Source: Scenedesmus sp. PABB004
Taxonomy: Eukaryota
NCBI GenBank assembly: GCA_014905635.1
Contig: JABVCE010000015.1
Location: forward strand, 1 to 64,000
Direction: 5' to 3'
Length of the DNA: 64,000 nucleotides
The first letter of the stretch is position 1; each line of letters starts with the position of its first letter. A model generated the notes under the pieces. It saw only the letters and a list, made by a program, of their open reading frames with translations, was not told the origin of the DNA and made no database searches. The translations under genes and the position numbers were made by a program. Shown here one piece after another: positions 9,422 to 13,881 of the stretch.

Positions 9422-12400
9422 TCACCCACCTGGCGTGATGAAGCCTGCAGGCTGCTCGGGCGAGGACCAGGACGCCAGCGACTGGTTGTTGGACGCGCCG
9501 TGCTCCAGGCTCGCGTTGGTCAGCAGCGCTCGCAGCGCGTCCATGGCGCTCCGCTCTGGGTCCGAGCACGACGGCAGCTGGCCGGAGGCGCCCAGCACTG
9601 ACAGGCCCCCCGGCGCGCAGCCGTCAATTGCAGTGCCCCTGGCGATGACGCGACCTTGGCCTTGGAAGTGCGTCCAGGAGGCCGGCACGGTGCCGGTGAG
9701 CCCGGCGTTGTCCGCCACGTCGATGTCTGTCGATGGCGGCAGCACGCCCTCGCCCCACTCCGGCGGCAGGGTCCCCTGCAGCGCGTTGCCCGAAAGATCA
9801 AGCGCCTTGAGCGATGCAATGTCCTTCCAAGCAGCCGGCAGGGAGCCGCTGATCGCGTTGTGATCCAGCCTCAGCGTTTCAAGCGCCGCCCAGCCTCGGC
9901 CCCACTCCGGCGGCAGCGTGCCACGCAGCCCGCATGAGCCCAACCACAGCTGTCCCAGCTTTGGCGCCGCCGCGGGCAGGCCCGGCGGCAGCTCCGTGTC
10001 CGACGGGCGCGCGGGGGCGCCGGCGGCGTGAATGCCGAGGCAGGAGACACAGATGAAACTTGTAAGGTGTGGCAGCGCCGCCGCCAGCTTGGGCAGCAAG
10101 CTGGCCCCGAGGCCGATGGGCTCGCCGTAGGCGGCAATGCCTTCCACACCCACGCCGTTGGCCTTGCGCTGCACGATCACCTCGATGTGCCAGGAAGGGA
10201 AACCGCCTTCGCCAGCGGGCGCGCCGTCTGCCGAGTACACCCGCAGGCCTTCTCCGTCCACCAGCGCGCTGCTGAGCGGCCGCAGCTGGGCCAGCATGCG
10301 GTCAAACCCGGCGTGCACGGACGCGTCCGCGCCCGCCAGCAGCACGTCGCGCAGGGTGGTGTTGAGCGCGCGCCACTGCGCCGCCTCGCCCTCGTTGCCG
10401 TTGCACGCGCCGGTGATGGCCGTGCCGTCGCGCATCACGCCCTCTACAAACACGGGGTCGAAGGGCAGGCAGCCGCTGAGGCCTGCATTGTCACTGAGGC
10501 CCAAGAACGTTAGATTGCGCTGCAGCGCCACCCACGACGACGGCACCGCGCCGGTCAGGCGGTTGCCACTGATCAGAAGCTTGGACAGTGAGCGAAGCCG
10601 GCTCCACTCGGGGCTCAGCGGCCCCGAGAGCGCGTTGTCGGGGAGGAAAAGATCCTGCAGCCGCTGAAACGGCGCCACCCAGTCGGCGCCGAGCTGGCCC
10701 GACAGGCGCTGGCCCCGCAGCGCGAGCTGCTTGAGTGCCGTGGGTCTCGCCAGCCAGGCGGCCGGGACCGTCCCGGTCAGGCCGCAGCCAGGCGAGGTCC
10801 CGGTCTCGGCCTGCCACGCCTGCGCAATCGAGAGCTTGGTGAGTGTTGTCCGCCAGCTTCCGGCCAGCCAGTTGGCCGGCAGGCCTCCCACAAAGCACGT
10901 GTGCTCAATGTACAGGTCACCCAGCGCTGCGAGCGCGCCGAGCTGGGGCGCCAGCTCCAAGCTGCCAGAAGCATCCACCAGCGACAGCGCGCCAAGGCTG
11001 CCGCGCAGGCTCAGCAGGGGCGCGAGCAGCGCGGGCGTCAGCGCGATGCGCGCGGCCCCGCTCGGCGGGCTGCGAGAGATCCACATGTTGACCTCCCGCA
11101 CCGCGCCCAGCGTGCCGCAAGTGCTCTGATTGACAGGCATATCATAAATGCCACCAGTCAGCTCCTCGCGCGCCCTGAACATCAGCGCGTCCCCACCGCC
11201 CGCCAGCACAATGTTCGTGGTCTCCGGCGCATCCTGGCAGGTCCACCACCTGAGCCGCGCCGCCTCGGCCGGCGGCGCGTAGTCCGGCGCGACCGCCTGC
11301 ACCAGGCCCAGCAGCGCGCGGACCTGCGCGACCTCCCGGTCCGCAAACGCCGCGACCGCGTAAAAGCCGGCCGGGTCCTCCAGCTGCGACGCGCGGCAGA
11401 TGGCCAGCCGCGTGCCCAGCGCCGGCGTGCGCGTGATGTTGGCGTCCGTGAAGTACAGCGCGCAGCCCACGGTGCCGCGCCCGAGCCCGCACGCCGCGGG
11501 CCCGGTCACGGCGTCGCAGGTGCGGCGCGTCGCGGCGCCGGACGCGTCGTAGTGCGTGCAGGCTGCATACGGCCGCGGCGCGCGCGGCGCGGCGAGCACG
11601 TCCTGCGCCGTGGCCAGCACCATGCCAAGCTCCGCGTCAGTCAGCGACGGGGCGAGCGTGTAGCTCACGTTTTGGCGCGGCCAGAGCGCCGCGTTGTCGC
11701 GCTGCACAAAGCGCCGCATGTCGACGCCAAACGAGTCAACGATCGACGCCAGGGTGTCGCCACGTGCGACGCGGTAGCCCACGCACGGCGTGCGCAGGTC
11801 CAGCGCGTCGGGCGTCGGGTCGAGCAGCTCCACGGGCCGTGGCACGCGCCAGGGCTGCGTGGAGTGCGGGTCGTGCTGCGGCGCGCCGGGCACAGGCGTG
11901 CACTCCAGGCCGTACGTCTCGTCCGGCGTGCCCACCGCTGTGACAGGCAGGCAAGCGGGCGGGCGACGGGCAGGGAGGGAGGGCGGCGGGCGGTCAGCCG
12001 ACGGCAGGCACGGGCAGGCAGCAGCAGGTGAGGCGGCTGCAGCGGCCAACCGCGCAGCTGCGCGGGAGCAGCTGGTGGCGGGCAAGCCCGCGCACCGGCG
12101 ACGCCCATCTTGATTCGGAAGAGCCCGTCAGCGGTGAAGCCCTTGGTGCGCACTTGCGACTTTGTCGCGCCGCCCCAGCTGTTCAGCACCAGCCTGGCGA
12201 GCGGGCGCGCGGCGGCGTCAGCGCATGCGGGGCGGCACCAGTGACACCGCGAGCAGCGCGGGTGCGGCACCGCACCACGTGTAATCGCTGTTGTTGTATC
12301 CCACGATTGCCACTGCACAAGCAGGCACGACAGTGCCAGCAGCGGCGGCGGTGTGAATGAGACCGCGCTCGGCGGCGCCGCACGGCGGCCGCGTGACCGC

Positions 12401-13881
12401 CCTGGTGCGCGCCGCAGCGCCCCGCCTCTCCGCGCGCAGCGCGCTGTGTCGGCCCGCGCGCCGCGCCTGCGTGGCCAAACAGGGGCCGGGCGGTCGCGTT
12501 GTATCGGTACGCCGGCCACTCCTCGCCGCGCACGGCGGCCGCGGAGGCGTTGAACTGGACCTCCCAGTCGTCGTAAATGCTGATGCGGCTCACCACGGCG
12601 CCGTGGTTGCGGATGTGCTGCTGAATTTGCGGGCGGCGTGAGGCGGGCGCAGTGGCCAAACGATGACGGGCCGCACGCGCGCGGCGCGGGCGGGCGGCGG
12701 GTGCGCCAGCCGCCCGGGCCGCCGCTGGCACGGCCCCCCAAACCCCCTGGCGGCGCACCTGCCAGAAATTGCTGAGTGATTTGTAGCTGCACTTGACGTA
12801 CGGCTGCTCCTTGCTGCTCTCGCGCGCGCAGGCGCGAGACGCAGCCGCGCAAGCGTCGCGCCAGCTCGTGACGCCCCCTTGCAGCTCCGCGTCCACCATC
12901 GCGCTCACGTTGCGAACGCAGGACGTGGGCCGGATGAGCTGCGGCGCCTCGTCAATCTGCAGCCGCGGCGGCGGCTGCGGGTCAGAACGCAGCGGGCGCG
13001 GGCGCCCCGCCGATTGCTGCGCCCCCGCCCCAGCCGTTCTCTCTCGTGCGCTCACCACCGCGTTCAGCGCGAGCTGGATGTCCCAGCCGGTGCGGCAGGT
13101 CCGGCCGCCAGCAGAGCAGTAGTGGAGCGAGGCCGGGTTGACCTCCCAGCGCCGCACGTCCTGCTGCAGCGCCGTCGCGGCGGCCATCTGCATCGCAGTC
13201 GCCACCGCGGTGCTCACGCACGTGGAGCACTCCTTCTGGTCGCGCGGGGGCGGCACAAAGGCGTTGCACGCCGCGCGGCGCGGCAGGCGCCCGCGCCGCA
13301 ACGTGCCGGCGGCGCCGCCGTTGCATGTCCCAAACGCCTCCGCCGCGCCGGCAAGGTAATACACGCCCGTCTGTGGTTGGTTGGTTGGTTTGGTGGGGGA
13401 GGGCGGGCGTGGGTGAGCGGCGCATGAGGGACGCTCCCACACACCCGCGGCGCACAGGCACGAGACGGCGCGCTCTGCGCCAGTGCAGTGCGGGGCACCC
13501 CACACTGCCGCGCCCCCACGCCGGCGCACCTGCAGTGTGCGCAGTCTGTCGGCGTCGGTGAACGCGCTGCTGCCCACGTTTGTGCCGCCCCTGCCGCCGT
13601 TGCCGCGGCCGCCCGTCGACTGCGCCGCGAGGGCGAGCGCGTCCTCAAACACCTCAAACTGGCTCGCTGTGGCCGCCTCGCCCTCGCCGAGCTGGTCCGG
13701 GCTCACGCCCAGGCCCTGGCCCGCGACGCCTGGGCGCGCCGGGGCGGGCGGGCAGCGCGCGTCGAGCGGGGGCAGGCGCGGGCGGCGCGCGCGGCCGGCG
13801 CAGGCGGTGCGCACCTCTGGTGCCGGCCAGCAGCAGCGCCGCCGCTGCCGCGAGCAGTAGTGCTGTTCGATGGCGGAGCAT
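9422..13881 (-). CDS. Secreted papain-like (C1A) cysteine protease - LysM - LRR fusion, copy 2
   Basis: ATG at 13881 (MLRHRTALLLAAAAALLLAGTRG). Catalytic Q/C, H and N motifs are all present (DQKECSTC, FGHA, WLVLNSWGG). LysM-like CVGYRVARGDTLASIVDSFGVDMRRFV. A ~2.5-kb exon carries two LRR blocks (LxxLxLxxNxLSGxLPxxW) and ends in an apparently incomplete third LRR cap (ALRALL...LASWS). Confidence 0.85.

Follow-up and report, generated by a model that had tools for sequence, protein, structure and literature searches.

Can a papain-type protease, a LysM-like module and leucine-rich repeats (LRRs) be carried by one algal polypeptide, or does such an arrangement only emerge when neighbouring genes are read together? 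This question was raised by a gene of the green alga Scenedesmus sp. PABB004, which lies on the minus strand of contig JABVCE010000015.1 (assembly GCA_014905635.1) and is termed copy A here. The window, i.e. the whole stretch of DNA that was analyzed, comprises the first 64,000 nucleotides of this contig. An earlier interpretation made from the letters alone (the sequence-only reading) had proposed a secreted and duplicated fusion protein, acting either in defence or in remodelling of the wall. We found that copy A joins the protease and the C-terminal modules in a single polypeptide, that its catalytic residues are retained and that its relatives are spread over the Sphaeropleales. With moderate confidence, we regard copy A as a real and probably expressed gene for the precursor of a secreted, divergent C1 endopeptidase, which its C-terminal modules would tether to or aim at extracellular material.

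The coding sequence of copy A begins with an ATG at position 13881 and its stop codon ends at 9422, exactly the limits that had been given for it. The joined frame, a model obtained by three-frame translation, comprises eight exons, 3603 nucleotides and 1200 amino acids (Table 1). As the content of guanine plus cytosine (G+C) is 70-83% throughout the window, long stop-free frames are frequent and open reading frames (ORFs) alone are little proof of a gene. The splice joints were placed by homology and conservation only. Relatives were taken from an exhaustive HMMER search in which the read-through of exons 3-5 served as the query and which yielded 129 proteins at an expectation value (E) <=1e-3, four of them at E<=1e-30. 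The best two matches, P0094 (KAF8055998.1) and P0095 (KAF8063660.1), are proteins of Scenedesmus sp. PABB004 annotated as hypothetical, and the model agrees with both of them at each exon joint except for two sites, the acceptor of exon 5 and the 3' end, which are weighed below. Six introns show GT-AG boundaries, whose donors (GTGCGC/GTGAGC) are typical of this sequence, and one is of the GC-AG type. The GC donor (CAG/GCGCGG) follows the exon encoding the catalytic His in both copies, at 12467 and 1742 of the minus strand, and the intron is supported by the motif GHAVxIVGY, which is contiguous across the exon 5/6 joint in all homologues.

The fusion itself does not depend on splicing. Exon 8 is a single uninterrupted ORF which begins within the C1 domain and continues through the LysM-like module and the LRRs, and the protease and the LysM-LRR part therefore cannot sit on separate transcripts. 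Characteristic motifs are located at model residues 133 (DQKECSTC), 314 (FGHA), 333 (LNSWG) and 414 (CVGYRV, LysM-like). Thus, the proposed order of signal peptide, C1 protease, LysM-like module, Cys-rich spacer and two LRR blocks was recovered within one polypeptide, the signal function being a prediction. The Kyte-Doolittle maximum of the protein (1.86) falls on residues 7-25, which are encoded by exon 1, and this exon aligns with the N-termini of the homologues P0096 and P0097 as well as with an internal Met of P0094 and P0095. Exon 1 probably specifies a signal peptide and hence secretion.

The C1 domain of copy A is spread over six exons. The cutoff of the Pfam family PF00112 (Peptidase_C1), 20.7 bits, was passed by the full-length homologues P0094 (29.0 bits), P0095 (36.3 bits), P0096 (46.3 bits) and P0097 (30.0 bits), the first of which shares 95% identity with copy A across its C1 part, and the family was matched in 88 of the 112 relatives scanned. 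A custom C1 hidden Markov model (HMM) was built from 21 more distant relatives, each above the PF00112 cutoff. It gave 166.2 bits with the spliced copy A protein and at most 0.8 bits with 50 shuffled sequences and the reversed sequence, a score that expresses kinship with Pfam-verified C1 proteins and not an independent discovery, the 21 relatives having come from searches with the copy A gene. The alignment was unbroken from residue 123 to 443 and passed across the exon 7/8 joint into the LysM-like module. Furthermore, a profile of five subfamily members gave four matches in the PDB at E<=1e-3 (best 8.2e-5), and all four were papain-family (C1A) enzymes.

In papain numbering, the catalytic dyad consists of Cys25 and His159, assisted by Gln19 and Asn175. 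The Gln, Cys, His and Asn-Ser-Trp of copy A all line up with the catalytic residues. DQxxCxTC was paired with NQGSCGSxW, and the His and Asn motifs of papain-family enzymes with GHAVxxVGY...NSWG; through the homologue P0096, the region of exon 3 was also aligned to NQGSCGSCWAF of a cathepsin L-like and a ginger protease. In the consensus of the whole family, the catalytic Cys is followed by Val and not by Trp, as had been noticed for copy A. The fold was tested on P0096, which is 47% identical to the copy A protein and stands in for it here. Its AlphaFold model, based on an alignment of 112 sequences, reached a mean predicted local distance difference test (pLDDT) score of 75.7, with 85-97 in the catalytic core. 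Foldseek found 263 matches to this model in the PDB at E<=1e-3, and 46 of 46 among the matches listed within ranks 1-50 belonged to the papain family. The best was xylellain (6.5e-10), followed among the matches listed by cathepsins B, K and S, mite allergens, papain and Cwp84.

Neither an I29-type nor a cathepsin-B-type propeptide was detected by Pfam scans in any homologue, and no Pfam family was found for the pro-region of exon 2. In place of a known propeptide there is a conserved, family-specific N-terminal region of ~100 residues, which may act as the propeptide; a propeptide of the I29 or cathepsin B type is not needed for membership in the C1 catalytic family. Judged by alignments and profiles, the domain is a divergent but genuine C1 member whose complete catalytic set predicts activity. 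The C1A assignment of the sequence-only reading, with Gln/Cys, His and Asn retained, thus stood up to profile searches at the level of the family.

The LysM assignment could be upheld in part. Pfam LysM (PF01476) gave 18.7 bits against a cutoff of 20.9 and covered profile positions 1-24 of 43 only, which is below threshold. A profile made of the copy A module and four subfamily members gave its best matches in the PDB with YaaH (3.9e-4), Ecp6 (2.1e-3) and MltD (9.9e-3), besides a Thermus NlpC/P60 enzyme, YkuD and SafA, all of them confined to profile positions 3-33. The top nine of 17 PDB matches are proteins which we take to carry LysM. At the same position after C1, distant relatives possess better LysM domains by Pfam (P0186, 38.4 bits; P0167, 20.9 bits; P0156, 20.4 bits), and hhalign joined the subfamily module to the LysM of these relatives with 96.3% probability (E 1.7e-9, 34 columns). 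These comparisons indicate that the module is LysM-derived and degenerate, its homology to bona fide LysM extending over the first ~30 residues; a LysM domain of full length was not recovered. The alignment of the relatives disclosed a further property: P0167 contains Ser at the place of the catalytic Cys and lacks the His, and P0186 contains Ser at the catalytic Asn. Non-catalytic 'pseudo-protease' members with an intact LysM seem to exist in the family.

The AlphaFold model of exon-8 residues 1-340 was of low confidence (pLDDT 53.7) and contained a strand at 52-55 and a short one near 92-93, with helices at 62-69 and 73-80 in between, elements that are weakly compatible with a beta-alpha-alpha-beta arrangement. 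With this model of the LysM/Cys-rich part, Foldseek found nothing at E<=1e-3; its weak top rows, among them a LysM-NlpC/P60 enzyme (E 0.055), were given no weight. A search of the ESM Atlas with the same part gave no usable match. The spacer described earlier as Cys-rich turned out to be a conserved domain with six Cys (Table 1), for which the AlphaFold confidence was likewise low.

The two LRR blocks of extracellular type were verified. Exon 8 exceeded the Pfam cutoffs for LRR_8 (50.2 bits, cutoff 27), LRR_1 (40.6 bits, cutoff 20.6) and LRR_4 (28.5 bits, cutoff 27), and nine GxLPxxW signatures were counted, which form one block at residues 713-825 and another at 1035-1111. Pfam detected no kinase family in exon 8. 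Besides the N-terminus, Kyte-Doolittle plots with 19-residue windows revealed no hydrophobic stretch of the level of a membrane span in copy A, and by eye the C-termini of P0094 and P0095 likewise contain no transmembrane segment. By these criteria, the copy A protein looks like a secreted protein, soluble or wall-bound, and not like a receptor. A word-index search with exon 8 gave 93 matches, all of them through generic LRR similarity, and none of the 93 contained PF00112 or PF01476. Several bacterial or metagenomic matches pair LRRs with other proteases (trypsin-like, reprolysin-like, M66 and subtilase). No match was obtained in this search with the non-LRR residues 1-340 of exon 8.

Proteins of this kind are not restricted to the strain. 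P0099 (WIA41421.1) of Tetradesmus obliquus, a 'hypothetical protein', belongs to the same family and shows the same module order. All 21 named relatives (30 were looked up) belong to the Sphaeropleales, namely to Scenedesmus spp., Tetradesmus obliquus, Enallax costatus, Hariotina reticulata, Monoraphidium minutum, M. neglectum and Chromochloris zofingiensis. C1 together with LysM or a LysM-like module, in some proteins also with LRRs, was found in each of the genera Scenedesmus, Tetradesmus, Enallax, Hariotina, Monoraphidium and Chromochloris. The complete ORF P0186, derived from an Enallax costatus transcriptome, comprises C1 and LysM; a search with it gave six matches, none from Chlamydomonas or Volvox. 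The combination of C1 and LRR was also identified by Pfam in P0148, P0198 and P0204. Among 43 proteins whose C1 domain is near-complete, 30, including the copy A model, matched an HMM of the LysM-like module of the family, and seven had at least three LRR signatures. In a quick, midpoint-rooted FastTree of the C1 domain (39 sequences, many of them fragments, after removal of four near-duplicates), the LRR-bearing forms fell into three subclades, a pattern from which we draw no number of gains. Compared with copy A, P0094 shows 94-98% identity as far as the motif WWTC and 64-86% beyond it, with 64-77% amino-acid identity in the LRR part. P0094 and P0095 both possess a third LRR block. Their N-terminal extensions (PD40, Clp_N) look like merged neighbouring genes.

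The proposed duplication was confirmed by a second copy (copy B) at the beginning of the window. Positions 10735-13990 and 1-3245 could be aligned in 3323 columns, with a nucleotide identity of 86.8%. For exons 1-7, the identity between the copies is 92.5-98.7%; exons 1-6 align without gaps and exon 7 with a net gap of 3 nucleotides. Six of the seven introns contain gaps and are 59-86% identical, and the third intron is 100% identical. The ratio of nonsynonymous to synonymous divergence (dN/dS) amounts to 0.21 in exons 1-6, 0.27 in exon 8 as far as WWTC and 0.49 in LRR block 1. The copies are under purifying selection. Synonymous divergence (dS) is 0.08-0.10 from the start codon to WWTC (~11240) and 0.70 beyond, a 7-8 fold rise. 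The tract of low divergence includes the introns and 109 nucleotides of 5' flank, and its boundary at ~11240 in copy A and ~500 in copy B resembles the point where a tract of gene conversion ends. Because of these two levels of dS, we regard the pair as old and its 5' two-thirds, including introns, as homogenised, presumably by gene conversion. The lower identity of the LRRs is explained by this process without positive selection, as their dN/dS is 0.49. Positive selection on the LRRs was considered and found unsupported, the ratio being below 1 and dS being raised as well. Exon 7 of copy B carries a lesion (Table 1), at whose site P0094 is intact, and copy B is ~97% identical to P0094 over exon 8. 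The lesion is either the mark of a young pseudogene or an assembly error.

Taken together, the reading that we prefer is the following. The product of copy A would be exported as a zymogen by means of its N-terminal signal peptide, and removal of the N-terminal pro-region would activate the protease. The LysM-derived module, the Cys-containing domain and the LRRs would then tether or aim it outside the cell, the target being wall or matrix glycoproteins of the alga itself or foreign surfaces. Its working mode would resemble that of cell-surface proteases with wall-binding modules of their own, such as Cwp84 and the LysM-NlpC/P60 enzymes, and would not be receptor-like because there is neither a membrane anchor nor a kinase. 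The locus would evolve by tandem duplication; the protease/LysM two-thirds would stay almost the same through gene conversion, and the LRR part would diverge.

Several observations weigh against this reading. Exon 3 of copy A alone scored 18.5 bits with Peptidase_C1, below the cutoff, and the high score of the custom HMM is bound to the origin of its sequences mentioned above. The second half of the LysM-like module is unrecognisable, only its first ~30 residues being LysM, and glycan binding may have been lost. The acceptor AG of exon 5 used by copy B is lost in copy A, whose acceptor lies 6 nucleotides downstream, and this shift deletes two conserved residues (I-Q). Moreover, copy A ends 15 codons past NNQSLASW, where P0094 and P0095 run on for ~360 residues with a third LRR block. 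Copy B is frame-broken; with a blemish in each copy, the locus could be decaying.

If the locus is decaying, both copies in the window would be non-functional or losing function, and intact members would reside elsewhere in the genome. The frameshift and stop in the catalytic-Asn exon of copy B, the lost splice acceptor and early end of copy A and an orphan C-terminal fragment at 3718-4309 point in this direction. We nevertheless consider it unlikely: copy A retains a clean frame of 1200 amino acids with all catalytic residues, dN/dS is 0.21-0.27 in the protease/LysM part, and the lesion of copy B may be an assembly error, the orthologous P0094 being intact. In addition, a natural form with two LRR blocks exists in P0099, which consists of 954 amino acids and ends near the end point of copy A.

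No likelier is an integrated immune sensor-effector, in which the LRR and LysM-like parts would recognise ligands of microbes or grazers and the fused protease would cleave proteins of the invader or release a signal, as a single-chain counterpart of a plant apoplastic protease and an LRR receptor-like protein. LRRs of the plant extracellular type, the homology to LysM and a multi-copy family with tandem duplicates and paralogues would suit such a function, as would the faster divergence of the LRR part from P0094 (64-77% amino-acid identity versus 94-98% in the protease/LysM part) and a pheromone-induced C1A protease of Volvox outside the cathepsin B/F/H/L groups (PMC2474614). However, the divergence of the LRRs goes along with dS values of 0.70 versus 0.08-0.10 and a dN/dS of 0.49, which is below 1, and gene conversion of the 5' part suffices to account for it; the LysM part is degenerate, and a membrane anchor or signalling domain is lacking. 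A defence role, one of the two functions suggested by the sequence-only reading, is possible, and it gained no specific support. Extended to the whole family, the idea would describe a 'sense-and-cut' immunity outside the algal cell. Fast-diverging LRRs and the LysM relic would dock on molecules of microbes, parasites or grazers and bring the protease with them, duplication would provide new LRR specificities, and gene conversion would preserve the protease cassette. We think this rather improbable; if true, it would be a fused counterpart of the apoplastic protease/LRR-receptor pairs of land plants, arisen independently in the Sphaeropleales. Finally, an artefact, i.e. neighbouring protease and LRR genes read together or chance ORFs in DNA of 75% G+C, is largely refuted and scarcely credible: stop-poor DNA does yield many long spurious ORFs, and in the public model P0094 an upstream PD40 gene has probably been merged, but the end of C1 and the LysM/LRR part lie on one exon, the module order recurs in P0094, P0095, P0099 and more distant relatives, and the conservation pattern of exons and introns and dN/dS values below 1 speak against it as well.

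Table 1. Features of the copy A locus and its surroundings in the window
Feature	Position	Strand	Description
Copy A exon 1	13815..13881	-	Start codon and signal-peptide-like N-terminus (MLRHRTALLLAAAAALLLAGTR)
Copy A exon 2	13530..13729	-	Pro-region AGQGL...QLGxGEAATAxxFExFED...GGRGxGGRG, conserved in P0094-P0098
Copy A exon 3	13056..13370	-	C1 N-terminal lobe; oxyanion Gln and catalytic Cys (DQKECSTCV)
Copy A exon 4	12759..12974	-	C1 domain, inserted Cys-containing loop region
Copy A exon 5	12467..12620	-	C1 domain, catalytic His (FGHA); GC donor at end
Copy A exon 6	12276..12312	-	VAIVGYNNSDYTW
Copy A exon 7	12096..12193	-	Catalytic Asn and Trp (LVLNSWGG)
Copy A exon 8	9422..11937	-	Single ORF: C1 end (AVGTPDETYGLEC), LysM-derived module, Cys-containing domain, LRR block 1, island, LRR block 2, start of LRRNT-like motif, stop
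LysM-derived module	11606..11785	-	CVGYRVARGDTLASIVDSFGVDMRRFVQRDN...; Pfam, profile and hhalign
Cys-containing domain	11237..11560	-	Conserved in P0094, P0095 and P0099; Cys at model residues 489, 503, 512, 521, 543 and 596
LRR block 1	10445..11047	-	Five GxLPxxW signatures
LRR block 2	9620..9994	-	Four GxLPxxW signatures; best Pfam LRR_8 stretch 9779-9919
Copy B	1..3136	-	Tandem paralogue with equal exon structure; leaves the window start inside LRR block 1
Copy B exons	3136-3070, 2982-2783, 2657-2343, 2261-2046, 1895-1742, 1587-1551, 1463-1369, 1199-1	-	
Copy B exon 7 lesion	1369..1463	-	Deletions of 1 and 2 nucleotides, 28 nucleotides apart, with in-frame TGA between, across LVLNSWGG (catalytic Asn)
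PD40 / TolB-like beta-propeller repeat gene	4454-5989	-	Best E 1.7e-9
Orphan fragment	3718..4309	-	Resembles C-terminal LRRs and tail (P0094 residues 1795-1922, P0095 residues 1796-1909); between PD40 gene and copy B

The surroundings of the two copies were inspected as well. The best-matching parts of the PD40 gene are 97-99% identical to residues 1-368 of P0094. A PD40 domain as part of the family was rejected, as copy A has no PD40 upstream, the N-terminal extension of P0095 differs and the internal signal-peptide-like Met is common to all. This Met and the differing N-termini of P0095-P0097 suggest that the public model P0094 is probably an annotation merge of the PD40 gene with the protease gene. 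The orphan fragment is 76% identical to residues 1855-1922 of P0094 and 65% identical to residues 1796-1843 of P0095, with a change of frame near 3925. It may have remained from a third copy, or it may be the 3' end of copy A in a displaced position. On the plus strand, a gene directed towards the 3' end of copy A includes ORFs that match the ligand-binding domain of pentameric (Cys-loop) ligand-gated ion channels. The match lies at 6749-7485 (Neur_chan_LBD, E 3.2e-13, 50.1 bits; second piece E 0.0086), and the gene probably reaches towards 9400; the plus-strand ORFs at 7298-9398 gave no match with Pfam. A gene of the pentameric channel family in a scenedesmacean green alga may merit separate attention. 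Just upstream of copy A, at ~14450-14750, there is a long trinucleotide-repeat tract which reads as poly-Ala, -Gln, -Ser or -Leu depending on frame and strand. Pfam gave no match with the upstream minus-strand ORFs at 14349-17271.

Extracellular proteolysis and surface recognition of green algae are little known outside Chlamydomonas and Volvox. The locus defines a gene family of the Sphaeropleales which is so far present only as 'hypothetical proteins' and which joins a catalytically complete, divergent papain-type protease to scaffolds of a carbohydrate module and LRRs. Should the protease be aimed by its C-terminal modules, the family would offer a simple system for studying how specificity for a substrate or a site is added to a generic protease. 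It may bear on wall turnover, release of daughter cells and colony or defence responses in biotechnological algae of the Scenedesmus type. The homogenised protease cassette next to diverging LRRs would illustrate gene conversion confined to one portion of a tandem pair. Nothing is overturned by these findings, since C1 with LysM has been on record for chlorophycean algae since 2009 (PMC2728734).

Compared with known systems, xylellain of Xylella fastidiosa (PDB 3ois) is the best structural match of the P0096 model (E 6.5e-10, TM-score 0.65 on the target), but it is a stand-alone bacterial enzyme with 20-21% identity. Cwp84 of Clostridioides difficile (PDB 4ci7), a C1A enzyme, was at Foldseek rank 20 (E 1.2e-7). 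Its non-catalytic surface-binding modules hold the protease at the cell surface, where the surface-layer protein is processed. It differs in being bacterial and in possessing a lectin-like domain and cell-wall-binding repeats instead of LysM and LRRs, and there is no close sequence kinship. The LysM-NlpC/P60 endopeptidases (Thermus thermophilus, 4xcm/4uz2; B. subtilis LytE, 8i2e) also represent cysteine peptidases of papain fold which are tethered by LysM to a glycan wall, and their LysM was among the matches of the copy A module. Unlike copy A, they belong to family C40 and not C1, carry multiple intact LysM copies at the N-terminus and act on the stem peptide of peptidoglycan. In plants, apoplastic papain-like proteases act together with LRR receptor-like proteins, for example Rcr3 with Cf-2 in tomato. 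Here, too, a papain-like protease and an extracellular LRR surface take part in one extracellular process, but the plant partners are distinct polypeptides, of which the LRR protein is anchored in the membrane and signals, whereas in copy A they are fused, without anchor or signalling domain.

Counterparts are also known from other green algae. In the open-access literature searched, we found no description of a protein with C1, LysM and LRRs. Chitin-binding LysMs of a Volvox chitinase are the subject of Kitaoku et al. (2019). Amon et al. (1998) reportedly described the Volvox protease as wound-induced and equipped with chitin-binding domains. According to Martinez and Diaz (2008), many algal C1A proteases fall outside the cathepsin B, F, H and L groups, as does VcPap-11 of Volvox carteri, which is induced by the sex pheromone, a finding for which they refer to Amon et al. 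(PMC2474614). Zhang et al. (2009) listed peptidase plus LysM among the architectures of green algae, the peptidase of Chlamydomonas reinhardtii being peptidase_C1 (PMC2728734). The assumption of the sequence-only reading that papain-like proteases, LysM and LRRs normally occur as separate proteins therefore fails for green algae, at least for C1 and LysM in Chlamydomonas (PMC2728734). Compared by published description and not by sequence, the Chlamydomonas, Volvox and copy A proteins have in common a papain-family protease, joined to LysM in one extracellular chlorophycean protein (PMC2728734) or, in VcPap-11, equally placed outside the cathepsin groups (PMC2474614). The Chlamydomonas protein is described with two LysM motifs and a peptidase, LRRs being unmentioned in this description (PMC2728734), whereas copy A comprises one half-recognisable LysM, a Cys-containing domain and two LRR blocks. 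Thus, we concluded that the family of copy A is an LRR-extended variant, with degenerate LysM, of a known algal C1 plus LysM design and not a unique invention.

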